From Alphaproteobacteria bacterium (lineage in GTDB: Bacteria > Pseudomonadota > Alphaproteobacteria > Rs-D84), in assembly GCA_017475605.1 (NCBI GenBank), contig JAFVFD010000005.1, positions 210,001 to 242,000 on the forward strand: a stretch of 32,000 bases of DNA, written 5' to 3'. Below, piece after piece: positions 7,048-24,871 of this stretch. Position 1 is the first letter of the stretch. Each line of letters opens with the position of its first letter. The notes beneath the pieces were generated by a model. It saw nothing but the letters and a program-made list of their open reading frames with translations, did no database searches and had not been told where the DNA came from. The position numbers and the translations under genes were made by a program.

Positions 7048-7368
7048 ATGGCATTACAACACGCTAACGACGAAACTTTTTCAAGTATGATTGGTAATGG
7101 CATTACATTGGTTGATTTTTGGGCAACATGGTGCGGTCCATGCCGTATGTTCGGCCCAATTTTCGAAAGTGTTTCCGAAAAAATTACCGATGTTAATTTT
7201 GTCAAATTTGAAATTGATGACACAAACCGTCAAACACCTGTTAAGTTTGGCATCCGCAGTATCCCAAGTGTCTTGGCATTTAAAAACGGCGAACTAGTCG
7301 AGGCTCGTACAGGGTTAATGGACGAAGAAACAGTTGTGGCATGGATTAATGAATTAAAGGCTTCCTAA
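7048..7368 (+). CDS. trxA: Thioredoxin
   Basis: 106 aa with the WCGPC active site (DFWATWCGPCRM) and the IRSIPSVLAFKNGE cis-Pro region. Confidence 0.95.
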   Translation: MALQHANDETFSSMIGNGITLVDFWATWCGPCRMFGPIFESVSEKITDVNFVKFEIDDTNRQTPVKFGIRSIPSVLAFKNGELVEARTGLMDEETVVAWINELKAS

Positions 7369-7369
7369 G

Positions 7370-7801
7370 ATGGCAAAAAAAGATTTCAAAAAGATTGTTT
7401 TACCACCAAAATATGTTCCAAAGAAATCTGAACCATATATGTGTCCAGAACAGTTGGCTTATTTTTATCAGTTATTGACCGCACAAAAGACAGAATTACA
7501 ACACGCATCTGGCGATGTATTAAATTCTGTTCGTATGGCGGAAAAATCATCATCAGAAGGTGTTGGCGACGATTCGGACAGCGCAACATTGGAACAAGAA
7601 ATCACAATGAATTTGCGTATGAGTCAACGCGACAGCAATTTGATGCGCAAAATTGATGCCGCATTGGCCCGCATTGAAGACGGCACATATGGTTACAGTG
7701 TCGTATCCGGTGATGAAATCGGTATTGGACGTATGTTGGCACGCCCCCTGGCGACAATGACTATCGAAGAACAGGAAGAATACGAACAACGCAAAAATTA
7801 A
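7370..7801 (+). CDS. dksA: RNA polymerase-binding transcription factor DksA (zinc-finger cysteines absent)
   Basis: 143 aa. Coiled-coil tip motif DDSDSATLEQE (DxxDxA). The C-terminal IEDGTYGYSVVSGDEIGIGRMLARPLATMTIEE aligns with the E. coli DksA C4 region, with Ser/Ser/Thr/Glu in place of the four Cys. Confidence 0.8.
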   Translation: MAKKDFKKIVLPPKYVPKKSEPYMCPEQLAYFYQLLTAQKTELQHASGDVLNSVRMAEKSSSEGVGDDSDSATLEQEITMNLRMSQRDSNLMRKIDAALARIEDGTYGYSVVSGDEIGIGRMLARPLATMTIEEQEEYEQRKN

Positions 7802-7814
7802 AATAAAAAGATAT

Positions 7815-7845
7815 AAAAAACACCGGCAAACGCCGGTGTTTTTTT
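7815..7845. terminator. Bidirectional rho-independent terminator (dksA / tatA convergent)
   Basis: Stem CACCGGC (7821-7827) pairs with GCCGGTG (7832-7838). It is flanked by an A-run at 7815-7820 and a T-run at 7839-7845, so it works on both strands. Confidence 0.7.
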
Positions 7846-7860
7846 GTCCAACCAAACTTA

Positions 7861-8115
7861 TTATTTTTTTACCGTTTTTTTCGCTGGTACTTTTTTAGCA
7901 ACCGCTTTTTTTACAGGTTTCTTTTTCGCAGGTACCTTTTTCACAACAGGTTTTTCCACCGGTTCCGCAGATGCCTTTGGTTCCGATTTCATTTCTTTTT
8001 TGAAAACATTTAACCCATCTGCCAGATTCTTCATCATACCAGGAATCTTGGCATGACCAAAAAGAATCACGACCAACAAAACGATTAAAAGTATTTCCCA
8101 AACACCCATACGCAT
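7861..8115 (-). CDS. tatA: Twin-arginine translocase subunit TatA/E
   Basis: 84 aa. The N-terminus MRMGVWEILLIVLLVVILFGHAKIPGMMKNLADGLNVFKKEMK matches the TatA TM-hinge-amphipathic helix pattern (LLFG). It has a Lys-rich repetitive tail (KKVPAKKKPVKKAVAKKVPAKK). AAGGAGA SD lies 5 nt upstream. No tatB or tatC is adjacent. Confidence 0.85.
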   Translation of the reverse strand: MRMGVWEILLIVLLVVILFGHAKIPGMMKNLADGLNVFKKEMKSEPKASAEPVEKPVVKKVPAKKKPVKKAVAKKVPAKKTVKK

Positions 8116-8137
8116 TTTTATCTCCTTATACTAATCA

Positions 8138-8974
8138 CTATTTTGCGACATAGCAATCAAGGCCATCAGATTTCGCATTCTGACAGAATCCATTTGCATC
8201 ATTTGATGTTGCAAACGATACACGCAAACGATATGTCGTTTTACCATTTGGCAACTGCGCCGCCAAAATCACGAATTGTTTACCACTAAACAAACTTGCA
8301 TGGCCTTTGCGCATTTGACGTTCTGCGCTTTCCGCCGCCGCACGCGTTGTGTACGAACCAAATTGAACAAACCATTTGCCCGCTGCAATTGGTGCCGTTT
8401 TTTGAACAGTCTTGGCCGCGGGTTTCGCAACAGGTTTTGGTTGCGCGACCGGTTTTGGCTGTGGCTGGGCCACAGGTTGCGGTTGTGCCGCAGGTTTTGG
8501 TGCCGCCTGGGTCGCCGGTTTATCCGGATTAAATGTAACATCACGACGGTCGGCCACCACGCGTACAGGCACGCCATTGTTTTCCGCAACTGGTGCCGGC
8601 ATTGGTGCTGGTTGTGGCTGGACCGCAGGTTTTGGTGCTGGGGCCGGCATTGGCATCGGTGCTGGCTGTACAGCAACCGGTTGCGCCGGAACATTTAATG
8701 TATCATTTGGTGCCGGTACATTAACCATCGTGGGTTCTGGTTCGGCGACCACCTCGGGCGCATCCAAATTGATTTCCACAGATTTCGATGAATTACCACC
8801 GATGGTACGAATGATGACATATGTTGCCAAAATAATAACGATTAACCCCAGCCCCATTAACAACCATGGCTTGCGCGGACGTGGTGCGGCAAAAGGTGTT
8901 GTTTCCGGCAACGATTCAACAGGTGTATCATCGTCTAAATCTAAAAAGTCCATATTGTTTTCTTCTTGTTCCAT
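8138..8974 (-). CDS. SPOR-domain (septal peptidoglycan-binding) membrane protein with Pro-rich linker
   Basis: One TM helix (WLLMGLGLIVIILATYVII), then a long P/A/Q/V-rich repeat region. The C-terminal GKWFVQFGSYTTRAAAESAERQMRK...YRLRVSFATSNDANGFCQ is SPOR-like. Start chosen at MEQEE (8974), which has GGGGGA 6 nt upstream. The track ORF extends to 8989. Confidence 0.75.
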   Translation of the reverse strand: MEQEENNMDFLDLDDDTPVESLPETTPFAAPRPRKPWLLMGLGLIVIILATYVIIRTIGGNSSKSVEINLDAPEVVAEPEPTMVNVPAPNDTLNVPAQPVAVQPAPMPMPAPAPKPAVQPQPAPMPAPVAENNGVPVRVVADRRDVTFNPDKPATQAAPKPAAQPQPVAQPQPKPVAQPKPVAKPAAKTVQKTAPIAAGKWFVQFGSYTTRAAAESAERQMRKGHASLFSGKQFVILAAQLPNGKTTYRLRVSFATSNDANGFCQNAKSDGLDCYVAK

Positions 8975-11949: not shown

Positions 11950-13534
11950 CTAATACCCCTTTTATTCTTTCCATTACCATATCCCCCCCCATAACCGTCA
12001 TTATGGAATAAAGGTCCGGTGTGTTTGTCCGCCCAGCCAGCGCAACCCGCAGGTTCATCGCGACATCGCCATTTTTAACACCAGTCTTTTCGGCAATTGC
12101 GACAATCTTATTCCACCATGTGTCTTTATCATCCGCCGGGTTGTAAGTTTCCAAAAATGCGCGCAATACATCCGTGTTATATTCGTAATCGGTTGCCGGC
12201 TGGAATAATTTATCCCAGAAAAACGCCACATTTTCCAATGTTTGATGCCACGTGATAAAATCTTTACGCACGCGTTTCGGGTTGTCGCGTTCAATGCCCA
12301 GCACCGCCGCCAAATATTTTTCATCTGCAACCTGCATTTTATTATCATCACTGCCATATTCATTTGCCCAGGATGCCACCCGCGCAACCAATTCATCAAC
12401 CGGCAACGAACCAATAAACTCTTTCGCCCACCATTCCAGTTTGTCCATATTGAATAACGCGCTGCTGGTTGGAATCTTTTTAACACGCAATGGATAATTC
12501 CATATCGTTGTGTCTGGCTTTTTATTTTTTTCTTCTTCAAAGCCGGCGGCAACAATATTAAACAAATAGTTCAACACGGCTTCCTGGGGATAACCATCTT
12601 GCAAATAATGCAATGTGTTTGCCTCGGGATCTGTGCGTTTAGACAATTTACGCGAATTGCCCGTTGTTTCATCCAATTTATTTATGGTTGCCACATGGAT
12701 ATATTCTGGTGCATTCCAACCCATCATTCTAAATAACTGCAAATGCAGGTTTAATGACGACAACCATTCTTCGCCGCGTTGTACCAATGTTGTCCGCATA
12801 AAGTGGTCATCACACAAATGCGCAAAATGGTATGTCGGCAATCCATCGTTTGATTTAATTAAAACAATATCTTCTTCGTTTTCTGGGAATACAAGACGAC
12901 CACGAACCTTGTCATTATAAATAACCTTGTTATCCTTGTTTCCTGTTGAATATAAACGAATCGATGGAACCTCGCCATTATCCAGATGTGCAATAATTTC
13001 ATCAGCGGTTAAATCACGGTCGCGTGCAAATTCGCCATATATACCGGTGGCAAAACCCGCCGCCTTTTGCCGTTCACGAATTTCATCCATTTCTTCTGCG
13101 GTTAAAAAGCATGGATATGCCAAGCCACGCGCCAACAATTCCGCCACTACCGAATGATAAACTTCTTTGCGCATTGACTGATAGTATGGACCATATTCGC
13201 CACCATTTTCTGGCCCCTCGTCTGGCAACAAATTAAACGCATGCGCACATTTTAAAATAACATCGACGGCACCGGCAACCTCGCGCTTGGTGTCTGTATC
13301 TTCGATACGCAACATAAATACCCCATCTGATTGACTTGCTAATTTTTTTGCAATCATCATTTGGTACAAAGTCCCCAAATGCATAAAGCCAGTGGGGCTT
13401 GGTGCAACACGCGTCACCATGGCGCCATCTGGTAAATTACGTGGCGGGAACTTTTCTTCCAATTCCGCAAGTGTATATTTCGGTGCCGCGCCCAACACAC
13501 GCGCAATTAAATCTTTATCTAAACCTTGTCTCAT
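11942..13534 (-). CDS. gltX: Glutamate--tRNA ligase
   Basis: Class I motifs seen: APSPTGFMHLGTLY (HIGH-type), RIEDTD, and KLSKR (KMSKS-type). The C-terminal LRVALAGRTNTPDLYSIMTVMG is typical of GluRS. The track start at 13540 is TTG; I prefer ATG at 13534 (MRQGLDKD). Confidence 0.9.
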   Translation of the reverse strand: MRQGLDKDLIARVLGAAPKYTLAELEEKFPPRNLPDGAMVTRVAPSPTGFMHLGTLYQMMIAKKLASQSDGVFMLRIEDTDTKREVAGAVDVILKCAHAFNLLPDEGPENGGEYGPYYQSMRKEVYHSVVAELLARGLAYPCFLTAEEMDEIRERQKAAGFATGIYGEFARDRDLTADEIIAHLDNGEVPSIRLYSTGNKDNKVIYNDKVRGRLVFPENEEDIVLIKSNDGLPTYHFAHLCDDHFMRTTLVQRGEEWLSSLNLHLQLFRMMGWNAPEYIHVATINKLDETTGNSRKLSKRTDPEANTLHYLQDGYPQEAVLNYLFNIVAAGFEEEKNKKPDTTIWNYPLRVKKIPTSSALFNMDKLEWWAKEFIGSLPVDELVARVASWANEYGSDDNKMQVADEKYLAAVLGIERDNPKRVRKDFITWHQTLENVAFFWDKLFQPATDYEYNTDVLRAFLETYNPADDKDTWWNKIVAIAEKTGVKNGDVAMNLRVALAGRTNTPDLYSIMTVMGGDMVMERIKGVLDD

Positions 13535-13568
13535 GTTCAAATACCTTGTTTTTATAACATTATGATTT

Positions 13569-13574
13569 TATACT
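13569..13574 (+). promoter_or_regulatory. Candidate -10 box (TATACT) placing the transcription start at the trmB ATG (leaderless)
   Basis: TATACT ends 7 nt before the A of ATG 13581. There is no SD in the intervening AAATAT. Confidence 0.35.
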
Positions 13575-13580
13575 AAATAT

Positions 13581-14216
13581 ATGCAAAATCAAGAAATACG
13601 AACTTTTGGCCGGCGACATGGCAAAAAACTTTCCGCACGCAAAGTGTGGCTGATGGATAATGTTTTGCCGGCAATTTTGCCAAAAAATATCAAAAAAGCC
13701 GGTAATCTTATTTTGGAAATCGGATTCGGCAATGGCGAACACGTGCGCGATTTGGCGCACAAATATCCCGATTCTGTTATTGTTGGTGCGGAACCATTTG
13801 CGAATGGGGTTGCGGCATTGCTTTCTGCAATATGCGATGAAAAAACAAACGAAGTAAAACCAGAATACAAAAACATTCGCATTTGGCCGGATGATGTGCG
13901 CGATTACCTGCGCGATACCGATTCGCAGTTTTCACAAATTTGGGTTCTGCATCCAGACCCATGGCCCAAAGCCAGACATGAAAAACGCCGATTGCTGAGC
14001 GCCGATTTTATAAAAATGTTGGCAACACACCTAGCACAACATGGGCAAATTATTATCGGCACAGACCACTGGGAATATTTCGATTGGATTTGTGAACAAG
14101 TAAAAACTACGGGCTTAAAATATTCAACACCCGATATCGAAACAATACATACCAGATACCAAGAAAAAAATATGGCTGAAACAGTCGCCCCCAAATACAT
14201 AATTATTGAAAAATAA
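13581..14216 (+). CDS. trmB: tRNA (guanine46-N7)-methyltransferase
   Basis: 211 aa. SAM motif LEIGFGNGEH, plus HPDPWPKARHEKRRL and GTDHWEY, as in TrmB. Confidence 0.9.
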   Translation: MQNQEIRTFGRRHGKKLSARKVWLMDNVLPAILPKNIKKAGNLILEIGFGNGEHVRDLAHKYPDSVIVGAEPFANGVAALLSAICDEKTNEVKPEYKNIRIWPDDVRDYLRDTDSQFSQIWVLHPDPWPKARHEKRRLLSADFIKMLATHLAQHGQIIIGTDHWEYFDWICEQVKTTGLKYSTPDIETIHTRYQEKNMAETVAPKYIIIEK

Positions 14217-14257
14217 AAAACGCGCTATATACACATTTACGCGGCATACATCGATTT

Positions 14258-14452
14258 TTACATACGTCTATTTCGTCGTGCGGTTGCAACCCGTCGCAGT
14301 TGAACCGGGTGCTTTGCCACCGGGTGTAATGCGACCCGATTATCACGAATCACATGGGTATTTGCCGGACGATATATTGGATAACGCACACACGCATTTG
14401 TAACGCATGGTACAAACAATAAAACCACTAAAATTATAAATCGTTGTAACAT
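14258..14452 (-). CDS. Possible small secreted Arg/Pro-rich peptide (hypothetical)
   Basis: 64 aa. A signal-like MLQRFIILVVLLFVPCVTNA is followed by a basic 44-aa tail (CVRYPIYRPANTHVIRDNRVALHPVAKHPVQLRRVATARRNRRM). It starts 5 nt after the stop of the upstream gene. The AAGGA sits too close to the ATG for an ideal SD. No family recognised, and it could be spurious. Confidence 0.3.
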   Translation of the reverse strand: MLQRFIILVVLLFVPCVTNACVRYPIYRPANTHVIRDNRVALHPVAKHPVQLRRVATARRNRRM

Positions 14453-14457
14453 TTCCT

Positions 14458-15132
14458 TTATCCATTATTAACCAAGAACAACATTTTTGACAGCATATTC
14501 GGACGCATTTGACCAACCAAACGGTAAAACTGATCTATGCGCGCAATATTTTCCCCCGACACAAAATATAATGCCCCATGCCAATCGCCCATATCAGTAT
14601 CCATCATTGAATAAACGCGTCCAACAAAGTCTGACTTGTCGCCATCATCATCTGATAAAAACAAGGTTAACGAATCGGCCCGCAATGTTCGCATGGTTTC
14701 AAACACCCTTGCCCAATCTGCCACATCTATTTCGTTTATATCCAGTCCCACAGAAAGAGTTTTATTAAAAAACAAATCATCACGAACAAAGGACATTTCC
14801 GATGCGAATTTGTCTAAATCACGAACACGCATAAATACAATTGCACCATCTGCACCGGCACGAAAAGACGCATTAACCCGCGTTGCAAAATCGGACATAA
14901 ATGCATCGTCTATATCAGATTTGATATAAAACCGACTAAATATTTTAACATTGGTATTTTCCAACCACGCCCACAATTGTTCTATTTCCGTTGGTGCGAC
15001 CACGACGGCATGTAATTGATTTGTAATGGCAACACCCGCCGCCGCCGCCAAATCAGCCCCCGAACAATCATCCCCACACCACAGTCCAAGGTTATCTTTT
15101 ACTTCGGTAAAAATCTCGTTTTGTTCAATCAT
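14458..15132 (-). CDS. Hypothetical protein (224 aa), function unknown
   Basis: A long clean ORF. Start set at ATG 15132 (MIEQNEIF). The track's TTG start at 15255 would overlap the divergent gene by 80 nt. There is only a weak by-eye resemblance to the strand/helix layout of DeoC-type class I aldolase barrels (RAGADGAIVFMRVRDL against AYGADEVDVVFPYRAL). Non-lysine residues sit where the Schiff-base lysines would be. This is not enough to name a family. Confidence 0.55.
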   Translation of the reverse strand: MIEQNEIFTEVKDNLGLWCGDDCSGADLAAAAGVAITNQLHAVVVAPTEIEQLWAWLENTNVKIFSRFYIKSDIDDAFMSDFATRVNASFRAGADGAIVFMRVRDLDKFASEMSFVRDDLFFNKTLSVGLDINEIDVADWARVFETMRTLRADSLTLFLSDDDGDKSDFVGRVYSMMDTDMGDWHGALYFVSGENIARIDQFYRLVGQMRPNMLSKMLFLVNNG

Positions 15133-15146
15133 TCTACTTTTTACTT

Positions 15147-15162
15147 TATCATAAATATGATA
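15147..15162. promoter_or_regulatory. Perfect 7-2-7 inverted repeat TATCATA-AA-TATGATA in a 43-nt divergent intergenic region; doubles as two extended -10 elements
   Basis: The palindrome is seen directly. The right arm plus flank reads TGATACAAT on the plus strand, with the hexamer ending 10 nt before ATG 15176. The left arm plus flank reads TGATAAAGT on the minus strand, with the hexamer ending 11 nt before ATG 15132. Confidence 0.5.
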
Positions 15163-15175
15163 CAATAAAAGACAA

Positions 15176-16078
15176 ATGAATAACAGAATAAATAACTTTT
15201 TAATTGGCTTGTTATGGCTGTTGGCATCAACATTGGCGGCGACCTTTTGGTTCAATGTGATGTATGGCTTTAATATTTTTTCTGTTCAGCATTGGCAGCA
15301 TTTGGCCTATATGCAGGCAATCGGTCAAACGGTGAAATTATCGTTCTATATTTCGTTGGTCGTAATAGTGATTATTGTAACATTCGGTTTTTATATTCTG
15401 TTACACCCACGATTCCGTCATATAACCATGCCTATTTTTGACAAAAACACCTCGCCAAAGCCGCATACCGCACCGGTTACACAACCAGTTTCGGTCCACG
15501 CGCCACAACCAACGCAAAAAACCGAAACGGCCCCCCAACCGACCGCAACAACCGCTTCGGCACCCGGCATTGTGCGCCCGCCACGCCTTAATATTCCAAC
15601 CGTTACACGTACCGAGGTTGTACCGCGCGTACCGTTGACATCGACACCAAAAGCGCGAATTGTTCCAGAAACAGAATATGCCGATATACGCGCCGCGTTT
15701 GAATCCGCTGGCTATGTGTTCAAGGGGACACCAAAAATCCGCGGTGTTCAAACCGCTATCATCGCAATCGGCACCGGCGAGGTTTTATGGATTGGTGCCG
15801 TCGGGGTCATGGCATCAGACATGCAACGCGCCGTTGAAACATTATCTGGTGTGTTTTCAGATACTTTGGACGATATCGAAATTAACATTAACGCGTTTAT
15901 TATTGCCCCTGTCGATTCAGTTGAAAACACCGGCATTTTATCATTTGAAACTGTAAATGATTTGCGCAATTATATAAGTGGTGTTCCAAATACGCCACCA
16001 AATGCAGACGACCAAGACAACTTTGATGCGTATTCTGGCTATATAGGAACAGTTGTTGATTATATAGGAAAAATCTAA
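15176..16078 (+). CDS. Hypothetical membrane protein: 2 TM helices + Pro/Thr-rich linker + globular C-terminal domain
   Basis: 300 aa. TM segments FLIGLLWLLASTLAATFWF and LSFYISLVVIVIIVTFGFYILL. The linker PKPHTAPVTQPVSVHAPQPTQKTETAPQPTATTASAP follows. The C-domain spans about residues 165-300 and no family was recognised. Confidence 0.6.
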   Translation: MNNRINNFLIGLLWLLASTLAATFWFNVMYGFNIFSVQHWQHLAYMQAIGQTVKLSFYISLVVIVIIVTFGFYILLHPRFRHITMPIFDKNTSPKPHTAPVTQPVSVHAPQPTQKTETAPQPTATTASAPGIVRPPRLNIPTVTRTEVVPRVPLTSTPKARIVPETEYADIRAAFESAGYVFKGTPKIRGVQTAIIAIGTGEVLWIGAVGVMASDMQRAVETLSGVFSDTLDDIEININAFIIAPVDSVENTGILSFETVNDLRNYISGVPNTPPNADDQDNFDAYSGYIGTVVDYIGKI

Positions 16079-16584
16079 TGCAGTGGAACCAGGGCACAGC
16101 AGAAAAAAGGATAACAGATTTAGGCATGGACGACTTGCCACTGGTCCAGATGCGCCCATCACCACAACCTGTTGCCCCAGATTGGTTTAAAAAATATCAC
16201 GATACAGCGCGCTCTTTCATAATGTCTTTGACAGATTCTATCCAGGAACTGGCATTTATGAACCTGCCCCAAGATGATTTTATGGATTTAATCATGGGAC
16301 GACGCATACCAGAAAACCTGTCGTTAAGATTGCGCAAGCCACTTGTTTGGGGCGGAAAACTAGAAATCGATAATATGTTTCTTTGTATGACTTTCCCGCA
16401 CGCACACAATATGGACAGGTTTATTATTGAACAATCTGGGAATGATGTTATATGGATGCCGAATCCAACAAAAAAGATATATTTACCGGCGCACATGATG
16501 AATGGTGGCGACGGTGGCAACGCAACATCTGACCGGTTAAGCCAACTGGCATCACAAATCATGGCATCACGCGGAATGGAATAA
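16078..16584 (+). CDS. Hypothetical protein with degenerate HNH / colicin-DNase-like beta-beta-alpha-Me signature
   Basis: 168 aa. The ATG overlaps the upstream stop (TAATG). Residues 82-113 read SLRLRKPLVWGGKLEIDNMFLCMTFPHAHNMD, which resembles the GG...DN...P..H..H core of HNH nucleases. The His-His dyad is missing. Confidence 0.55.
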   Translation: MQWNQGTAEKRITDLGMDDLPLVQMRPSPQPVAPDWFKKYHDTARSFIMSLTDSIQELAFMNLPQDDFMDLIMGRRIPENLSLRLRKPLVWGGKLEIDNMFLCMTFPHAHNMDRFIIEQSGNDVIWMPNPTKKIYLPAHMMNGGDGGNATSDRLSQLASQIMASRGME

Positions 16585-16589
16585 AAAAC

Positions 16590-17024
16590 ATGAATATGAA
16601 TGAATTTATATCTTCGATGAAATCACGTGGTGCAATAATATTTCCACCGGCAACCACACGTGATATAACATTGGCAAACAACGCATTACAATCGCGCCGA
16701 TGCGCAATGTTTCCGGCAATTTTTAATAAACTTTACCAAACTGCATCATCAATTAACCTTGGCAACGGTTATATTTTTGGTCCGTTCGAGGTTTCGCGTG
16801 GCAACAAATACCCAATACCATCTATTGTTGATATAAATGTTGAATTATCTATTATTAGCGCCTTGCGTGGTAAAACAATATTTGGTCGGAACGATTTGTT
16901 TTTATTTGCATTTGATGCGTTTGGCGCGTTCTATATGCTGGATAACCTGGGGTTGCGCGTTTTGCGCAAATATGACGACCCCTATCGTGCCTTGTCCGAT
17001 TGTTTAATCGCAGGAAAATTTTAA
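16590..17024 (+). CDS. SUKH (SMI1/KNR4)-like protein, possible immunity protein
   Basis: 144 aa. The layout ...TTRDITLANNALQSRRCAMFPAIFNKLYQTASSINLGNGYIFGP......LFLFAFDAFGAFYMLDN...VLRKYDDPYRALSDCL follows the SUKH-1 pattern. That pattern is a ligand-like helix, x-P-x-x-(Y/F)-x-x-(F/L), a G-rich turn, then the hydrophobic FA-D-G-x-x-Y-x-LD strand pair. Judged by eye only. Confidence 0.5.
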   Translation: MNMNEFISSMKSRGAIIFPPATTRDITLANNALQSRRCAMFPAIFNKLYQTASSINLGNGYIFGPFEVSRGNKYPIPSIVDINVELSIISALRGKTIFGRNDLFLFAFDAFGAFYMLDNLGLRVLRKYDDPYRALSDCLIAGKF

Positions 17025-17025
17025 G

Positions 17026-17241
17026 ATGAAAAAAATATCTGTATCTTTATCCGGGCACCAAACCAGCATTTCACTGGAAGAAGATTTCATAGATGCCCTG
17101 CATAAAATAGCCACACACGATAATATTTCTGTTGCATCAATTATTCAAACAATTGATGACATGCGTTCACCGGAATCTAATCTTTCTTCTGCGGTGCGTT
17201 CATACATATTGCGCCGATACATGAAAGAATCAAAATTATAA
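17026..17241 (+). CDS. Ribbon-helix-helix protein, RHH_4 type
   Basis: 71 aa. SVSLSGHQTSISLEEDFIDALHKIATHDNISVASIIQTIDD...NLSSAVRSYILRRY matches the alphaproteobacterial RHH_4 pattern (G-H/R-x-T-S-x-x-L-E..F..AL..IA....NLSSAxR). The ATG lies 1 nt after the previous stop. The last 65 nt overlap the convergent lnt 3' end. Confidence 0.7.
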   Translation: MKKISVSLSGHQTSISLEEDFIDALHKIATHDNISVASIIQTIDDMRSPESNLSSAVRSYILRRYMKESKL

Positions 17242-19186
17242 TCATCCACCCATCACGACCAATTGTGCGATAAATGGTATCGTGCGCCCCCCAAATCGTG
17301 CCGTCCAGTATACCACTTTGCCCGATTGGTAACGATGCCACAACTTCACCATCTGACAAAACAAATGCACTTATTCCAGAATAATTAGCACGTATAACAG
17401 GTAACCCAGATTCAATCGCATAACGACGTACCATGTCAAGATGCTGATATGTACCCGGTGTATTTCCGAACCATGTATCATTAGTTATGTTTATAATCGC
17501 ATTCGGCCGCAATTCCGTATTATTCGGCACCAAAGAATCTGAAAAGATGATTTCATAACACACCGCCGGCGCGAATACAAAATCAGCGTTTTCCATATTT
17601 ATTGAAATCAATTCTGCACCAGTCCCAGATGCTAAATCAATCGGTGCCGGCATAAATCCCAATGGCCGATATTCCCCGAACGGCACCAGGTGTGATTTAC
17701 TGTAAATATTATTTATATTTCCATCGGGTCCAGCCACAATCAAGGAATTATATGGCCGGCCATCTGATACAGACGTTGCCCCAATAATCACATTTGTTTT
17801 TAGCGCGGTTGCCAACGGCATATCGTCAGAATCTATTATTGTGTATGGATATGATGTTTCCGGGAAAACGACCAAATCGGGTTCCCCTTCGTCCGCCGCC
17901 ATTTGAAAAAGTTTAATCAGATTTTCTTCTGCGCGCTTTAATGCGCCTTCACGCGAATAAACCATCTTTTCTGATTGTGATTGTGCCGGCTGAACAATAC
18001 GAATCATCGCCCCCGTTCCCATATCTTTTGACGACACTGAAATATTGTGTATACCGGAAAATCCGCCACATAGCGCGATTACTACAAACAATAAAAACAC
18101 AAACCAATTGCGCCACGATTTTATATTTTGTAATAATTCCACCGTCGCCGCAATTAACCCCACAATAACAAATGTTAATCCCAACGCGCCCCACACCGCC
18201 ATTGAATTAGATATAATCGGGCAAGGCATTGTTATATTTGCAACAGGATTCCATGGGAAACCTGTAAACACCCATTCGCGCAACCATAAAACAAGTGTCC
18301 AGATACCCGCGAACATAAATGGCCGTCCCGCCCCATGCGCGCGGAACAATGCCACGAAAGGAATTGTAAATATCAATACGCCCGCAATTCCCAAACCAAC
18401 CAAGCCAGGTATAGTCCATATAGCAAATTGTTTTGCAAGTTCTGGTACAACATATATTGAATGTAGTGTCCACCAAAACATAGCGATGGAATACATCGCA
18501 CCAAATGGTGCCACACGCAACATTTCACGCAAAACACCACCATGATTCATGCGCCTTGTTGTCAACCAATACGCACCACCGATGCCAATTAATGTTGCCC
18601 ACCAGGCATAAAATGGCGCAAAACCAAATGCCGCAACACAGCCAAACAGTGCATATAGCGCATATTGCCAAAAACTATTTTCACGTATTTTTATTTTTTT
18701 CAACAACGAAATTGTGCGCGCACCTGGACAACAAGAACCATTGGTGCACTCTATTTTTTCTTCATCCAAATATGGATTTTTATAGCCCAATTTTTTCATA
18801 ATTGCGATTTCACGCGATTCCATTATTTCCGCTTCATCATCGCGTATATGGTCATAACCTTGCAAATGCAACATCCCATGCACCACCATATGCGCGGTAT
18901 GTTCCGCAACCGATATGCCGGCGGCATCGGCTTCGCGTTTAACGGTATCAAGCGAAATATAGATATCCCCCAACAATATATCATCTCCCAATTCAAACGA
19001 CAGAACATTTGTTGGCTTATCCATACCACGATATTCTTTATTAAGTTTATGTATTTCGGCATCATTGGTCAGTGTAATAGACACTTCGGCATCACTACGT
19101 TTTGGGCCCGCCGCAGATGCGATTTTTTCAAAATCAACCGCATATTTTTTCCAACGTTTATCATCATAGTTTACATAAACTTTCAT
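17177..19186 (-). CDS. lnt: In-frame fusion: endoribonuclease YbeY (aa 1-139) + apolipoprotein N-acyltransferase Lnt (aa ~160-669)
   Basis: The N-terminal part has NVLSFE and the zinc motif HGMLHLQGYDH of YbeY, ending ...KKLGYKNPY. A linker follows (LDEEKIECTNGSCCPGARTIS). The multi-pass Lnt membrane domain comes next. The CN-hydrolase domain carries the catalytic E (VVFPETS), K (KSHLVPFGEY) and C (PAVCYEIIF). It is a single ORF with no stop, and GGGGGAAAAG SD precedes ATG 19186. Confidence 0.85.
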   Translation of the reverse strand: MKVYVNYDDKRWKKYAVDFEKIASAAGPKRSDAEVSITLTNDAEIHKLNKEYRGMDKPTNVLSFELGDDILLGDIYISLDTVKREADAAGISVAEHTAHMVVHGMLHLQGYDHIRDDEAEIMESREIAIMKKLGYKNPYLDEEKIECTNGSCCPGARTISLLKKIKIRENSFWQYALYALFGCVAAFGFAPFYAWWATLIGIGGAYWLTTRRMNHGGVLREMLRVAPFGAMYSIAMFWWTLHSIYVVPELAKQFAIWTIPGLVGLGIAGVLIFTIPFVALFRAHGAGRPFMFAGIWTLVLWLREWVFTGFPWNPVANITMPCPIISNSMAVWGALGLTFVIVGLIAATVELLQNIKSWRNWFVFLLFVVIALCGGFSGIHNISVSSKDMGTGAMIRIVQPAQSQSEKMVYSREGALKRAEENLIKLFQMAADEGEPDLVVFPETSYPYTIIDSDDMPLATALKTNVIIGATSVSDGRPYNSLIVAGPDGNINNIYSKSHLVPFGEYRPLGFMPAPIDLASGTGAELISINMENADFVFAPAVCYEIIFSDSLVPNNTELRPNAIINITNDTWFGNTPGTYQHLDMVRRYAIESGLPVIRANYSGISAFVLSDGEVVASLPIGQSGILDGTIWGAHDTIYRTIGRDGWMIIILILSCIGAICMNAPQKKD

Positions 19187-19211: not shown

Positions 19212-21125
19212 CTAGGCGCGGCTTGCACCATTTTTAACATTTGCCATTGTTGTTTTTTGGGTTGCCTTTTTCTTGATACGCGCCGCCCCATCATTAAACG
19301 CTATTTTCTGGGACGTTTGCTTTGTGTTTTTCTTTAACAAATTAGTTACACGCGTAACATCAGACTGTACACTTCGATTTCCATTTGCGACAGCTAATTT
19401 ATAATTTGCCAATGCTTTATTCAAATTACCCAATTGCTCGTATGCAAATCCGGCATTATATTGTGCGGCCGCATACTGTGATTTATCGCCAATACGTTTA
19501 ACAATTTCTTGGGCATGAAAGATGGCTTCTTCGTAACGGCCCAAATGATTGCAAGTCGCAGCCAAATCATTATGCAATAATGCATTATCAGGATATTCTT
19601 CTGCTAGATTTTCAAACAACATAAATGCTGTTTCATAGTCACCTGACTTATATACCTTTACCGCATCTGCGTACAAGTTTTCATAATTCATAACATACGT
19701 AGATTTTTCTATCTGCTTTTCTTTCACTGATTTAATTACAGGTTTTAATTCACAAATATTTTTATCACATTCCACCAATGCAAAATCTGGCATGTAATCA
19801 CGAACTTTTTTCCATCCCGCAATTGATTGTCCGTATTCATTAACCGGATTTTCTAGCCATTGTAAAAATTCTGCATATGTTGCCTTGTTTACAATTGTAT
19901 TACCATTTACATCTTTTTTCCAAAAAGCAGATTTATCTGTATTCTTGTTTTTTACATCTTTCTGTTTATACTTTAGAAAAGCAGAAAGGCCATCTATTGG
20001 ACACTTCAACAAAACATCTGGGGTTAAATCACCAGTAAGCAAACCTGCCTCGACCCAACGACGAATCCAGAGGCCACGTCCTTCGCGACAAAAATTACCA
20101 AGTGTATTTGCCACCGCCTTTTTAGATTTTCCGCCCAACCACATTTTTCCAAAACTGTATGTTGTATCTACAGGATTTTTCGCAAAAGCATCCAATACAT
20201 CTTCTTCGGAAAGCCCAGCACCCTTATCTTTATAGGCTTGTCTCAAATCTGCGAAACGATCATTTAATTGTCTGTTCCTTTTTTTGTTTATGAATTGTGG
20301 TTCAATTAAATTACTAAAACCGTTATACATAATAGATGCAATTGCCAATGCTTCTGGCACACTGTCTATATTTATAGAATTAAAGGCGGTATCATAACAA
20401 TACATTCCGAAATAAGTTTCCCCTTCTTCAAGGTGCCAACGGGCTAACTCATATGCTTCTTCGGTTGTAATAGGTTTTGTATATGACGTAACAGATGTCC
20501 CGTCCTTTAATACCGTAGAACCAAAACCAATTGTTGCACGTCCTTTTGGTTTTTGTCCTGGTCGTAATGGTTTACCTGTTGCATCATCATAGACCACATG
20601 TAAACCATCTTCGTTTACACGCACACCCTCGTTTGCGACAAGACTGGCAATCAAGAACGGTGTAACAGGTTTAATTTTTTCGCAATACCCGCCCAATGTT
20701 TTGTCTTCATATTTTAAGTCTATATTTTCAATTTTATCATCATCTATATTACCTGCCCCATCACGAGATTGAACAAACTTCGAACCGCCGATACCCAAAC
20801 TGGCCAACAACATCCACCAAGACACAATTGATGTAAAATTAGGATTTTTCTTTATAAACTTTGGGAACTTTTTATCAGCACCATTTTTATTTTTTCCGAC
20901 CTTGATTTCAGAAAATAATTTTTCACCACCGCGTGTTATATGATTATCCAATGTGATATATTTTGCCAACCACAGCAAAGCCTGGGCTGTTGCCGCTGTT
21001 GTAATACCCGTACCGCGTGCAACCTTGCCAAACATTTTTTTGGGGGTAGTATCCTTGATTTTTTTCCCCAGTTTTCCAACCGCCATGTGTGGCGCATTCA
21101 CAATGTGTTGAAATTTTTCAGACAT
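19212..21125 (-). CDS. Membrane-anchored GH24 (phage/T4-type) lysozyme-like protein with C-terminal TPR repeats
   Basis: 637 aa with a basic N-terminal region and one TM helix (FTSIVSWWMLLASLGIGG, about aa 97-114). The GH24 pattern is LVANEGVRV...VVYDDATG...GRATIGFGST...PITTEEAYELARWHL...EALAIASIMYNGF...GLWIRRWVEAGLL, with E166, D180/181 and T198 at the Glu-Asp-Thr positions. TPR-like repeats span about aa 482-583 (YETAFMLFENLAEEYPDN, LGRYEEAIFHAQE, AQYNAGFAYEQLGNLNKALANYKLA). AGGGGAAG SD upstream. Confidence 0.7.
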   Translation of the reverse strand: MSEKFQHIVNAPHMAVGKLGKKIKDTTPKKMFGKVARGTGITTAATAQALLWLAKYITLDNHITRGGEKLFSEIKVGKNKNGADKKFPKFIKKNPNFTSIVSWWMLLASLGIGGSKFVQSRDGAGNIDDDKIENIDLKYEDKTLGGYCEKIKPVTPFLIASLVANEGVRVNEDGLHVVYDDATGKPLRPGQKPKGRATIGFGSTVLKDGTSVTSYTKPITTEEAYELARWHLEEGETYFGMYCYDTAFNSINIDSVPEALAIASIMYNGFSNLIEPQFINKKRNRQLNDRFADLRQAYKDKGAGLSEEDVLDAFAKNPVDTTYSFGKMWLGGKSKKAVANTLGNFCREGRGLWIRRWVEAGLLTGDLTPDVLLKCPIDGLSAFLKYKQKDVKNKNTDKSAFWKKDVNGNTIVNKATYAEFLQWLENPVNEYGQSIAGWKKVRDYMPDFALVECDKNICELKPVIKSVKEKQIEKSTYVMNYENLYADAVKVYKSGDYETAFMLFENLAEEYPDNALLHNDLAATCNHLGRYEEAIFHAQEIVKRIGDKSQYAAAQYNAGFAYEQLGNLNKALANYKLAVANGNRSVQSDVTRVTNLLKKNTKQTSQKIAFNDGAARIKKKATQKTTMANVKNGASRA

Positions 21126-22860: not shown

Positions 22861-23583
22861 CTAGAATAAAATATTAACTTTTGCGCCGATTTGAACTTCT
22901 TCGTGTTCAAATTCATAGTCAAAGTGCGCAACATATTGTGTGCGACCGAATTGGGCAACACCCTTTAAATTCAGCCATTCCTGGTTATAATGTGGGTTTG
23001 TTGATTTGCGGAATGTAAAACCACCGCCCACGCGCCACATTTGGTCAATACGAAAATAAGATTCTGGGATAAAGTCAATATAACTCATTCCGCGGGTATC
23101 ATCAAAAATCCAAGTAGATTTTATTGTCGCGGCCAACGATACACCCGCCCATTGCCGACCGAAACGAAGTCCCGCGTAATATGATGAATCGGCAAACCAT
23201 GGTGTTCGTACGTGTTTCGAACCACCGAAACGAAATCCCGCAATAACATCCGAAATTAATTTCGCATTATTGTCGTCCGCGCGCGCCATGCGATATGTCC
23301 CGCCAAGGTCGATACTGGAAAAACCATCGGCATCATCAACAAAATCAATTTGGTAATGCACACGCCCCGAAATCGACAGCCGGTCGTTAAGGCCATAGCC
23401 GAATTCCTGGCCCAGCCTTAAGATATCATGTCCATATGAAATATCTGTTTTCGATAAAATTGCATCATCGCGCAAAATGAATAACGGATCAGATGTATCG
23501 GTTTCAATACCATAATCTGCGCGTGCCAAATTTGGCACAAACAAAAAAGCCAACACCGCAAAGATATTGAAAACCTGTTTCAT
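22861..23583 (-). CDS. Outer-membrane beta-barrel protein (small paralogue of the upstream OMP)
   Basis: Signal peptide MKQVFNIFAVLAFLFVPNLARA. The sequence shows alternating amphipathic strands and a C-terminal ...GAKVNILF with terminal Phe. It shares E(F/D)(G/S)YG(L/I)(N/T)DR(L/I)...G..(H/Q)Y(Q/E) with the 409-aa OMP. Start set at 23583, with AAAGGG 7 nt upstream. Confidence 0.65.
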   Translation of the reverse strand: MKQVFNIFAVLAFLFVPNLARADYGIETDTSDPLFILRDDAILSKTDISYGHDILRLGQEFGYGLNDRLSISGRVHYQIDFVDDADGFSSIDLGGTYRMARADDNNAKLISDVIAGFRFGGSKHVRTPWFADSSYYAGLRFGRQWAGVSLAATIKSTWIFDDTRGMSYIDFIPESYFRIDQMWRVGGGFTFRKSTNPHYNQEWLNLKGVAQFGRTQYVAHFDYEFEHEEVQIGAKVNILF

Positions 23584-23597
23584 ATGACAACCCTTTG

Positions 23598-23623
23598 CCC
23601 GACCGAACATTTGTCCGGTCGGG
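23598..23623 (-). terminator. Intercistronic hairpin between the two OMP genes (possible attenuator or partial terminator)
   Basis: CCCGACCG-(10 nt)-CGGTCGGG, an 8-bp GC-rich stem. There is no U-tract on the transcribed minus strand; the T-run is on the plus strand. Confidence 0.4.
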
Positions 23624-23641: not shown

Positions 23642-24871
23642 TTAGAATTGGAATATAGCCTGGATACCAATGCTTGTTTCGCGATAGTCGCTGATTTTAG
23701 CATCACCAGCCTTCATCCATTCATAGATATGTGTTCCAGGATTGCCCGCATCTTCTGCGCCCCACCACCAGAACGTTAAATCTTTATCATCGGCATCATC
23801 ATACAATGATGTTTTCGCATAAAGGTTCAAAGCAAACCAGTCGTTTGGTTGCCAGCCAATTGCGCCCTTGATTGACAATTGGTTGTGCCAATCATAGTGG
23901 CCAAAGATGCCTTCGACATTTAATGTCCAATCTTCGGACAGAACACTGAATACACCCAAACCACCTTCGATATAGAATGCGTTTTTCGCATCGGCATCAT
24001 ATGCGATAAAGATTGCTTCTTCGTGATCGCCGGCATCTATGCCCTTGATACCGTTGCCATATGCGGTTCCGTCAAAGTCAACAAACCAGCCACGTGCCAA
24101 ACCATAGATTGTTGAACGGGAAACCTTGTACCCAGCCTTCAAATCTAACACATAGTTATTCGCAATATCTTTTTGATGTTGGAAATATGCAGATGCGGTC
24201 GCAATCCATTTGTCGTTATCAACAAAACGCCATTGTGCACCCAAACCAAACATATTCAAATCGTTGTCGTCCATTTTGTCATCTGGGGATGCGGACCAAT
24301 CGAATTTATATTTATTAAATTCATATTGCAACATACCCAAAACAGCAATACGATCGGTGATTCCATAACTGAAATCTTCCTTGATTGCAAATTGTTTCAT
24401 ATCCCAAGCAGCCTTAGGATCAGACAGCGAGAATCCCGTCGCTTCGGTCAAAGCGATATCATACGAACCCATGTTATAACCGAAATCGGTTATCGAACCG
24501 AACTTGCCCTGTAACGGTTGAAAGAACGGATGCGCCAAATAATATTTGCGTTTCAATTCAGTACGAACAGTTTCCGCGCGTGTTGTACGAACGGTCTGGG
24601 ACGAATTGCCCGACGCATATTGTTTATATAATGCGCTGCGGTTAGCCGGCTGGGTATAATACATATTTTTCCCGTCGTTAACCTGATATGTAGTTGTGGT
24701 TGTGCGTGTTTGATATTTCGCATAATCCACATTTTCGCGTGTACGTGTGGCCGGTGCACCGGATAAATCCACGCTGGACCCCGCACGCGTTCCCCAATTT
24801 GTCGCCGCGCCCGCCGGCAATACAACCGCCAACGCCGCCACAGCACCCAATAAAGATAATTGTTTCTTCAT
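23642..24871 (-). CDS. Outer-membrane beta-barrel protein / putative porin
   Basis: 409 aa. Signal peptide MKKQLSLLGAVAALAVVLPAGA. Aromatic-rich alternating strands and a C-terminal ...SIGIQAIFQF. A strong AAGGAG SD lies upstream. Confidence 0.7.
   Translation of the reverse strand: MKKQLSLLGAVAALAVVLPAGAATNWGTRAGSSVDLSGAPATRTRENVDYAKYQTRTTTTTYQVNDGKNMYYTQPANRSALYKQYASGNSSQTVRTTRAETVRTELKRKYYLAHPFFQPLQGKFGSITDFGYNMGSYDIALTEATGFSLSDPKAAWDMKQFAIKEDFSYGITDRIAVLGMLQYEFNKYKFDWSASPDDKMDDNDLNMFGLGAQWRFVDNDKWIATASAYFQHQKDIANNYVLDLKAGYKVSRSTIYGLARGWFVDFDGTAYGNGIKGIDAGDHEEAIFIAYDADAKNAFYIEGGLGVFSVLSEDWTLNVEGIFGHYDWHNQLSIKGAIGWQPNDWFALNLYAKTSLYDDADDKDLTFWWWGAEDAGNPGTHIYEWMKAGDAKISDYRETSIGIQAIFQF

Follow-up and report, generated by a model that had tools for sequence, protein, structure and literature searches.

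In Escherichia coli K-12, the yhhZ gene overlaps yrhA, and YhhZ is an Hcp-fused effector of the His-Me finger type (PMC5714182). On IncHI2 plasmids, an HNH gene is likewise followed by a gene annotated as a 'YrhA family protein', and in the teneurins an inactive HNH toxin domain of the GHH clade has been exapted (PMC3482391). Here, we analysed a cluster of four genes (g1 to g4, numbered in their order) in a stretch of 32,000 nucleotides (the window) from an Alphaproteobacteria bacterium of the Rs-D84 lineage (assembly GCA_017475605.1, contig JAFVFD010000005.1, positions 210,001 to 242,000), in which the second and third genes turned out to be related to these pairs. The reading that we favour, with a rough probability of 0.45, is that the cluster is an exapted, non-toxic descendant of a YhhZ/YrhA-type pair, in which g1, g2 and g3 would form a membrane-anchored adaptor complex under the control of g4. 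All functional statements made below are drawn from sequence, structure prediction and gene context.

The product of g2 carries a colicin/YhhZ-like HNH motif from which the HH dyad is missing, as the initial annotation of this DNA had claimed, and it is also free of any trafficking domain, being a protein of 168 aa with no hydrophobic segment (maximum KD19 of 0.72) and no Pfam or NCBIfam domain. Neither g1 nor g2 gave anything significant against Pfam and NCBIfam, nor did g3 against Pfam, and the profiles of all three matched PDB sequences at chance level only. The AlphaFold2 (AF2) model of g2 (pLDDT 86.9) gave Foldseek matches that were individually weak, in lists dominated by HNH domains. 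An exhaustive hidden Markov model (HMM) search starting from g2 collected 73 cluster representatives, including relatives of 180-420 aa, some of which belong to sister lineages that encode a VirD4-type coupling ATPase (type IV coupling protein, T4CP) next to the g2-like gene. By hhalign, the profile of the g2 family (A1) aligned with that of the T4CP-linked sister family (A5) over 144 columns with a probability of 99% (E=2e-18), and A5 aligned with the C-terminal HNH region of E. coli YhhZ (residues 252-385) with a probability of 98.75% (E=1.4e-16). Furthermore, A1 matched the HNH protein of the IncHI2 plasmids (E=1e-4), which itself passes the cutoff of Pfam HNH (PF01844, 27.1 vs 21.4 bits), and the sister family matched this IncHI2 'HNH endonuclease' by tblastn (E ~5e-10). 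The homology of g2 to YhhZ and the plasmid HNH protein extends into the helical region upstream of the HNH core.

The catalytic residues of this fold have been lost from g2. When g2 was aligned with the sister family, the plasmid HNH protein and YhhZ (alignment A4), the two motifs were V-H-H-K-x-P...GG...DN and (S/E)PYH in the IncHI2 plasmid HNH protein and YhhZ, V-H-L-K-x-P and THPYHxxIH in the sister chromosomal family, and L-R-L-R-K-P and TFPHAHNMD in the window g2. Position 84, which is a ligand-type His position, was Arg in 121 of 121 g2 sequences; position 85, the general-base position, which corresponds in the alignment to the second H in the VHHK of YhhZ and the plasmid proteins, was Phe in 90, Leu in 23, Met in 7 and Cys in 1, and was never His. 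Position 109 was Ser, Ala or Cys in the same 121 sequences and position 113 was invariably Asp (121/121), and the window g2 is as listed for the family at the four His positions (R84, L/F85, A/S109 and D113). H108 and H110 of g2 look like motif His residues but do not align with the catalytic positions and vary within the family, and the structural GG and N99 (121/121) are invariant. In the sister chromosomal family, the general-base His is lost throughout and three possible metal ligands are kept. Because all four His residues are replaced, we judge from the sequences that g2 cannot act as a conventional metal-dependent nuclease, such an activity being very unlikely, and a pairing of R84 with D113 may have replaced the metal site. 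An extra conserved C-terminal segment, GGxGGNATxDR, is present in g2 and missing in YhhZ and the plasmid proteins. A conserved 'MWDWSG' marks the N-terminus of the sister g2-like proteins, which also contain long disordered regions rich in P/Q. Towards the C-terminus, a Gly-rich/DR segment and a ...G(R/K) tail are common to them and g2, and none of these features is found in YhhZ or the plasmid proteins.

The SUKH/SMI1-KNR4 layout proposed for g3 was borne out by its AF2 model (pLDDT 94.7), for which the top three PDB matches in Foldseek were 3d5p, 2icg and 2pag (probability 1.0, TM-scores of 0.58-0.71). Against the NCBIfam YrhA model (NF038335), g3 scored 15.1 bits (E=0.016) over nearly its full length and did not reach the cutoff of 55, and the g3 profile matched the gene that follows every g2-like gene in the sister loci (E=4e-13 to 9e-6). 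One of these sister proteins, L090_148 (L and a number denote a locus fetched for comparison), passes the YrhA cutoff (71.8 vs 55 bits). Since g3 scores 15.1 bits and L090_148, a member of the g3 profile family, scores 71.8, g3 is to be regarded as a divergent relative of YrhA rather than as a scoring member. The g3 gene directly follows g2 in every related locus (84 of 84) and in every sister locus. In view of the profile chain leading to YhhZ, the overlap of yhhZ with yrhA and the plasmid pairs of HNH and YrhA genes, the g2-g3 pair is a genuine relative of a toxin-immunity pair. To this extent the toxin-immunity assignment of the initial annotation stood, g2 being a degenerate HNH protein, g3 a SUKH protein and the pair homologous to yhhZ-yrhA and the IncHI2 pairs. 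The plasmid pair itself was seen, for example, at 7359-8936 of L094 (Salmonella IncHI2A plasmid NC_021845.1), where a 353-aa HNH endonuclease and a 168-aa YrhA-family protein are encoded beside trhG/trhH; it occurs in NC_021845.1 and 457 other plasmid records, 433 of these 458 being typed as conjugative, and no functional description of it was found in the literature.

The distribution of the cluster is that of a core module. Homologues, all of them unnamed, numbered 477 for g2, 636 for g3 and 274 for g1, and all came from metagenome-assembled genomes (MAGs) of gut, rumen or termite-gut Alphaproteobacteria, such as Ca. Enterousia and 'Rickettsiales bacterium', with relatives of g2 in at least 253 species genomes when one genome was scanned per species. 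As the proposal of a single module had implied, the genes co-occur elsewhere: g1, g2 and g3 were present in 84 of 84 fetched loci, and g4 and a divergently oriented neighbour of g1 (orfM) were present in 83, the single locus without these two being a 1.3-kb contig. Gene order and orientation were constant across the 84 loci, and the locus is single-copy and syntenic. The mean identity to the window protein over these loci was 64% for g2 (range of 58-86%), 59% for g3, 63% for g4 and 42% for both g1 and orfM, and that of the flanking genes was 68% for trmB, 71% for gltX and 60% for ybeY-lnt. Both g2 and g3 are under purifying selection, with pairwise dN/dS (ratio of nonsynonymous to synonymous substitution rates) against the closest loci of 0.06-0.14 and 0.10-0.19, respectively, compared with 0.06-0.10 for trmB and 0.15-0.20 for gltX, all of these values being rough because dS is close to saturation. 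The cluster was intact despite different flanks in L042, L048, L051, L082, L117 and L118. Because g1 to g4 have hundreds of homologues, dN/dS values of 0.06-0.24 and a strict co-occurrence in 83-84 of the 84 related loci, they are real genes, and minus-strand open reading frames (ORFs) within g1 and g2 (e.g., 16197-16562) were rejected as genes since the conservation and the low dN/dS belong to the plus-strand frames.

Horizontal acquisition was considered and rejected, because the window g2 had no match in the plasmid collection by tblastn, no relative of the sister g2-like family (the sole family scanned) was found on viral contigs, and the GC of the cluster (0.42-0.45) is ordinary, being the same as that of the rest of the window. 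The cluster is a vertically inherited core module of the Rs-D84 (Ca. Enterousia-type) gut Alphaproteobacteria, and the data rule out a toxin cassette that is mobile, polymorphic or of recent acquisition. The Rs-D84 order has genomes of ~0.75-1.0 Mb without the tricarboxylic acid (TCA) cycle, respiration or standard transporters, and its describing authors proposed that it depends on other cells (PMC12306168).

These results bear directly on the explanation that the cluster is an active toxin-immunity or addiction module, in which g2 would be harmful in a non-canonical manner, by DNA binding or by a remodelled Arg/Asp/Asn site, g3 would neutralise it, g4 would autoregulate the operon and loss of the locus would be lethal. 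Such a module would fit the homology of g2 and g3 to YhhZ/YrhA and the IncHI2 HNH/YrhA pairs, the tight translational coupling of the genes, the invariant polar residues that remain at the former active site, and the presence of a ribbon-helix-helix (RHH) regulator and a promoter palindrome, which is typical of type II toxin-antitoxin operons. Toxin-antitoxin and polymorphic toxin loci are, however, usually patchy and fast-evolving. The effector-immunity cassette is thus the part of the earlier proposal that did not hold, and an active module in general is unlikely: His is missing from all four positions in each of the 121 sequences and the general-base His is gone from the whole chromosomal sister family; g2 is without a trafficking domain; in at least 253 species the locus is fixed in single copy, syntenic and inherited vertically, with dN/dS like that of housekeeping genes; and there was no match in a PADLOC defence-model scan of the window, no GC anomaly and no sister-family relative on viral contigs.

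The wider gene set in the sister lineages, which the initial annotation had missed, gives further evidence for the origin of the cluster. In each of the 17 informative metagenome loci, the g2-like gene is immediately preceded by a T4CP gene, and the same placement was seen in L085, L086, L089, L090 and L119. The sister T4CPs are 726-784 aa long and contain the Pfam domains T4SS-DNA_transf, TrwB_AAD_bind and TraG-D_C, intact Walker A and B motifs are visible in their sequences, and an acidic C-terminal tail is present in some loci. Wherever the contig extends, a g1-like gene is found upstream of the T4CP gene, giving the order g1-like, T4CP, g2-like, g3-like, and in L119 the genes for RHH_4, g1-like, T4CP, g2-like and g3-like proteins follow one another in a row. 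Versions with RHH_4 and without the T4CP were found in L091/L092, L117 and L118. The sister operons, whose named members are 'Alphaproteobacteria bacterium ADurb.Bin438' and 'Rickettsiales bacterium' MAGs, are placed among housekeeping genes (cysS, uvrB/C, dnaK/J and PBP1A). The closest plasmid T4CPs are 31-34% identical and represent VirD4 of canonical alphaproteobacterial virB clusters, which are without these accessory genes; a 160-aa gene after the closest plasmid VirD4 (Erythrobacter) was checked and found to be unrelated to g1, g2 or g3. A description of a set of VirD4, NERD-like, HNH-like, YrhA and RHH_4 genes was not found in the literature, the coverage of which was incomplete.

Several observations on individual comparison loci stand beside these. 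At 969-13461 of L119 (GCA_045598925.1), the five-gene set lies ~3-7 kb from ComEC, Endonuclease_1 and UDG genes; this was seen in one locus only and may be a coincidence. At 1945-7034 of L087, a g2-like/g3-like pair without g1-like or T4CP genes is divergent from genes for two large proteins (582 and 704 aa), each with an N-terminal segment that resembles type IV pilins and without a match in Pfam. A 3.4-kb insert between g3 and g4 in L082 was examined as a candidate T4CP and rejected, as it is an unrelated 742-aa minus-strand gene. In the same locus (MAG 'Rickettsiales bacterium' Gsp477_bin73), palindromic repeats of ~70-85 nt, (AAGGAC)n...(GTCCTT)n, are inserted in frame in the orfM, g1 and ybeY-lnt homologues at 300-660, 1229-1311 and 7155-8172, adding peptide blocks such as KGQKDKRTNGQ...SFCPFVLLSF; they resemble the Rickettsia palindromic elements that invade coding genes, and the element is not in the window.

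The linkage to the T4CP raises the possibility that g2 is a secreted type IV substrate, that is, an effector or adaptor passed to partner cells, with g3 as its chaperone or immunity protein and g1 as a DotM-like receptor subunit, and with the T4CP and channel of Rs-D84 encoded elsewhere in the genome. The T4CP always adjoins in the sister lineages, in the order given above, with intact Walker motifs and, in some loci, the acidic tail; the 'MWDWSG' N-terminus, the P/Q-rich disorder and the conserved C-terminal ...GR tail of the sister g2-like proteins, the location of the IncHI2 HNH/YrhA pair beside the trhG/trhH transfer genes and the proposed dependence of the host lineage on other cells agree with secretion as well. 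We nevertheless consider it improbable, given that no T4CP or secretion genes were found in the window, that no T4CP is encoded within ~8 kb in any of the 84 related loci or in L117 and L118, that no virB genes are near the sister operons, that the sister T4CPs score below every curated NCBIfam cutoff, and that a dead nuclease would be an odd effector. Secretion systems also go unmentioned in the published survey of Rs-D84 genomes (PMC12306168).

A different view of the same gene set is that it would represent an undescribed, self-contained machine of the inner membrane in uncultured, partner-dependent Alphaproteobacteria. Being chromosomal, flanked by housekeeping genes and without VirB nearby, such a machine might serve to translocate DNA or protein, or to sense either, without relying on a canonical type IV secretion system (T4SS) channel. 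The Rs-D84 cluster would then be a motor-less derivative in which both nuclease folds are inactivated and which is still indispensable, an idea that we hold to be doubtful. As for the direction of change, the T4CP may have been lost in Rs-D84 or gained in the sister clade.

The membrane protein g1 provides the remaining link to this set. As had been claimed for it, g1 combines a pair of hydrophobic segments (~residues 8-28 and 48-76) with a Pro/Thr linker, in which 16 of 78 residues are Pro and 14 are Thr, and with a C-terminal domain. This domain is predicted to be cytoplasmic by the positive-inside rule because an Arg/Lys cluster follows the second transmembrane segment; g3 and g4, like g2, are without a hydrophobic segment. 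The g1 profile matched the gene upstream of the T4CP in the sister loci from the transmembrane region to the start of the C-domain (E=5e-10 to 4e-5), and g1 of the deeper Rs-D84-like loci L042/L048/L051 matched L091_389 and L090_412 by tblastn (E=5e-8 to 1e-5). L091_389, a relative of g1, in turn matched NERD (PF08378, a PD-(D/E)xK-like domain) with E=0.007 and 17.3 bits, below the cutoff of 22.1. The g1 family alignment shares the pattern AGY...I.G...AI...D..GDWLADEE..W...SPV; in the window g1, the ~30-aa 'GDWLADEE..W..SPV' segment is deleted, and the acidic residues of the relatives are absent. The C-domain of g1, whose identity the initial annotation had not spotted, is thus a probable, although not proven, truncated, acid-less and degenerate NERD-like domain. 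Residues 193-213 were considered as a third transmembrane helix and rejected, as they align with core strands of the NERD-like domain in the relatives, and a weak match to IcmG/DotF (E=0.068) within the transmembrane/Pro-rich segment was treated as compositional. Because NCBIfam scans of the sister g1-like proteins L090_412, L102_348 and L108_411 gave no significant family, there is no support for a DotM or IcmG assignment. In the T4CP-carrying lineage of L102 (3777-6012), two tandem copies of the g1-like gene (387 aa and 348 aa) are present, both of them matched by the g1 profile.

With a NERD-like domain in g1, it could be supposed that the cluster is a remnant of, or an accessory to, DNA uptake or processing, the NERD-like and HNH-like domains binding DNA at the inner membrane and a VirD4-like motor acting where it is kept. 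NERD, HNH and RHH are all nucleic acid-related folds, VirD4-type ATPases translocate DNA in conjugation, and RHH proteins such as TrwA are classical accessory factors of T4CPs and relaxosomes. The five-gene set of L119 is also only ~3-7 kb from ComEC and an Endonuclease_1 gene; this proximity, however, is limited to the one locus, no relaxase or oriT-like feature was identified, and the Rs-D84 operon is without the motor, which makes this explanation quite unlikely.

The small protein g4 is, as proposed, a member of RHH_4 (Pfam PF13467), with E=3.3e-19 and 69.1 bits against a cutoff of 25. The match covers residues 2-64 of g4 and model positions 2-66 of 67, and among solved structures the uncharacterised protein 3kk4 comes closest (E=0.01). 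An RHH_4 gene is found with the module in L091, L117, L118 and L119 as well. The divergent gene orfM was assigned a likely start at 15132 (MIEQNEIF, 225 aa), not at 15255 as in the ORF listing, because its orthologues are 220-234 aa long and an ATG is present at 15132. It adjoins g1 in 83 of the 84 loci, its homologue in L118 is ~3 kb away, and it is not in the T4CP-type loci. Orthologues of orfM across Rs-D84-type genomes have the invariant residues W54, W56 and E58 and a DLFF motif, and no Pfam, NCBIfam or PDB sequence match was obtained for orfM, even with a 19-sequence profile, Pfam scans of the 19 orthologues being empty as well.

The spacer between orfM and g1 contains a conserved operator-like element. 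The palindrome TATCATAAATATGATA noted earlier is present at 15147-15162 (TATCAT-AAAT-ATGATA), inside a 22-nt motif that is unique in the window. The spacer itself (43 nt) is almost invariant in 62 loci whose proteins share just 40-65% identity. The 22-nt core TTTATCAYAAATATGNTAYAAT was found in exactly one copy per locus in 75 Rs-D84-type loci and in two copies in one further locus, and it occurs once in the window vs a chance expectation of 0; it was not found in the deeper lineages L042, L048, L051, L117 and L118. The motif overlaps an extended -10 element (TGaTACAAT) for g1 that lies ~12 nt ahead of the ATG and therefore predicts a very short leader, with transcription beginning ~5 nt before the ATG. 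On the minus strand, it is overlapped by the -10 TATGAT of a promoter-like TTGTCT-16-TATGAT for orfM at 15175-15148. It is a reasonable inference that g4 binds at this palindromic motif.

Taken together, the evidence is most consistent with the exapted pair named at the outset, for which we propose the following mechanism. The ancestral set would have consisted of an RHH_4 protein, a NERD-like transmembrane protein, a VirD4-type coupling ATPase, an HNH-like protein and a YrhA-like protein, and it probably served to recruit a substrate (DNA or protein) to the type IV coupling protein or to process it there. In Rs-D84, g2 would keep the core of the HNH fold but none of its four histidines, and it most likely still binds g3, as toxins and immunity proteins bind. 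The g2-g3 pair would dock on the cytoplasmic degenerate NERD-like domain of g1, and g4 most likely represses the divergent orfM and g1 promoters through the conserved palindrome. As the ATPase gene is outside the Rs-D84 operon, the complex would work with a partner encoded elsewhere or would have been repurposed. The homology, the loss of the catalytic residues, the synteny, the purifying selection and the association of the relatives' genes with a T4CP are established by the data, and we infer the g2-g3 and g1-g2 contacts, the occupation of the palindrome by g4 and the cellular role.

Several points weigh against this proposal. The invariant residues R84, R86, N99, N111 and D113 of g2 could form a new, unrecognised active site. 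The symmetry of the palindrome could reflect two back-to-back, overlapping divergent -10 boxes alone. The scores that connect g1 with NERD are weak (Pfam E=0.007 in a relative, and hhalign E=2e-4 and 9e-3), and it is because of the weak direct hhalign scores that the assignment is called probable and not proven. Finally, there are no virB genes within ~10 kb of the T4CP operons of the relatives, so the connection to a T4SS is uncertain.

The coordinates of the features are given in Table 1. The four plus-strand ORFs at 15176-17241 are present as described in the initial annotation, and so are their junctions, that is, the TAATG with its 1-nt overlap between g1 and g2, the 5-nt gap between g2 and g3 and the 1-nt gap between g3 and g4; an AGGA/GGAA-like motif is present ahead of each start. 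A scan of 13500-17600 against Rfam gave no RNA family.

Table 1. Positions of the cluster genes, the neighbouring genes orfM and ybeY-lnt, and the conserved motif in the window.
Feature	Position	Strand	Description
g1	15176-16078	+	300 aa; inner-membrane anchor protein with two transmembrane segments, Pro/Thr linker and probable degenerate NERD-like domain
g2	16078-16584	+	168 aa; YhhZ-type HNH (His-Me finger) domain protein, His positions replaced
g3	16590-17024	+	144 aa; SUKH / SMI1-KNR4 fold, divergent YrhA-family member, presumed partner of g2
g4	17026-17241	+	71 aa; RHH_4 ribbon-helix-helix protein, presumed regulator
orfM	14458-15132	-	225 aa; conserved cytosolic protein, divergent from g1; membership in the module uncertain
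Promoter/operator-like motif TTTATCATAAATATGATACAAT	15145-15166		22 nt, conserved, between orfM and g1
ybeY-lnt fusion gene	17177-19186	-	669 aa; YbeY Pfam E=7e-36, Lnt TIGR00546 E=4e-70

The flanks are of housekeeping type, as had been noted, with gltX and trmB on one side and ybeY-lnt, a MucR/Ros gene, mgsA, ftsK, secDF and others on the opposite side. On opposite strands, g4 (plus) and ybeY-lnt (minus) converge and share 65 nt at their 3' ends (17177-17241), and the same 65-nt overlap is present in L001 and L003; the dS of g4 (0.35-1.1) is below that of its neighbours, as expected for doubly coding sequence. This conserved overlap could be taken to mean that the cluster is an accessory module of envelope or lipid biogenesis tied to ybeY-lnt or, elsewhere, to AsmA-like genes, and g1 is indeed a membrane protein, and the gene convergent to RHH_4 in L091 and L118 is AsmA-like, another envelope-lipid factor. 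The convergent orientation, however, means that g4 and ybeY-lnt are not co-transcribed, the neighbours in the T4CP-type loci are unrelated (MFS, DUF1189 and uvrB), and a cytoplasmic location is predicted for g2, g3 and the C-domain of g1, each of which is of nuclease or immunity ancestry. Such an envelope role is accordingly highly improbable.

Other features of the neighbourhood were also observed. The genes ybeY, for an RNase of rRNA maturation, and lnt, for apolipoprotein N-acyltransferase, are usually separate genes of one operon; the fusion is kept in the related loci L001, L003, L082 and L117 at 596-804 aa. A 637-aa protein with C-terminal tetratricopeptide (TPR) repeats is encoded at 19212-21125 on the minus strand of the window; its relatives show a weak match to phage lysozyme, and it is ~41% identical and missing from many related loci, unlike its neighbours. 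Two further minus-strand ORFs of 249 and 409 aa (22861-23610 and 23642-24871), located upstream of ftsK, had no Pfam match at E<=0.001.

This cluster would represent a bacterial toxin-immunity pair that has been domesticated as a pair, with all catalytic His residues lost and both partners under selection at the level of housekeeping genes, in a setting of some of the smallest free-standing gut bacterial genomes. The exaptation of conflict systems is well documented in eukaryotes, as in the case of teneurins, and, to our knowledge, bacterial exaptation in which the immunity partner is retained has rarely been documented. A further outcome is the conserved set of genes that surrounds an orphan VirD4-type coupling ATPase in uncultured Alphaproteobacteria related to this lineage. 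Because a life at the expense of other cells has been proposed for Rs-D84 bacteria, which are without standard transporters, the module is a concrete candidate for a role in their interaction with partner cells, a role suggested by its being conserved, membrane-anchored and of type IV secretion ancestry.

In comparison with known systems, the window locus shares with the YhhZ/YrhA and IncHI2 pairs the arrangement of an HNH-domain gene followed by an overlapping or nearly overlapping SUKH/YrhA gene for a protein of ~145-170 aa. Unlike YhhZ, g2 has no Hcp or other N-terminal delivery domain, and unlike both YhhZ and the plasmid HNH protein, it is without the HH dyad and both downstream His residues and has the extra GGxGGNATxDR segment. 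The window locus is core and syntenic, not borne on an island or plasmid as these pairs are, and its pair is embedded with a membrane protein of NERD-like type and an RHH_4 protein, unlike YhhZ/YrhA. With the polymorphic toxin systems (Zhang et al. 2012, PMC3482391; Jablonska et al. 2017, PMC5714182), it has in common an HNH-type toxin fold adjoining a SUKH protein, whereas the trafficking or pre-toxin domain, C-terminal polymorphism, immunity array and active site of such systems are absent, and its sequences are conserved at housekeeping rates. Like type II toxin-antitoxin operons, it is small and its genes are coupled, and it includes an RHH gene and a palindrome over the promoter; it differs from them in that the RHH protein is a separate fourth gene product and not the neutralising partner, the locus is universal in the lineage and the toxin homologue is catalytically dead. 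As for coupling protein complexes, dotM lies upstream of dotL, and TrwA is an RHH accessory of VirD4/TrwB; similarly to DotL-DotM, a sister protein with two transmembrane segments and a cytoplasmic domain is encoded directly upstream of the VirD4-type T4CP, and small soluble proteins and an RHH protein accompany the sister T4CP as in T4CP complexes. With respect to the Legionella DotL-DotM-IcmSW complex, g1 showed no sequence similarity to DotM, nor did g2/g3 to IcmS/W, and unlike T4CP operons, the window operon has no T4CP, nor are VirB channel genes near the sister T4CP operons. As in teneurins, an HNH toxin domain has lost its catalytic residues and has apparently been retained under selection for a non-nuclease role. 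Unlike teneurins, which are eukaryotic, extracellular and RHS-fused, g2 is bacterial, predicted to be cytoplasmic and stand-alone, and it has kept its immunity-type partner.

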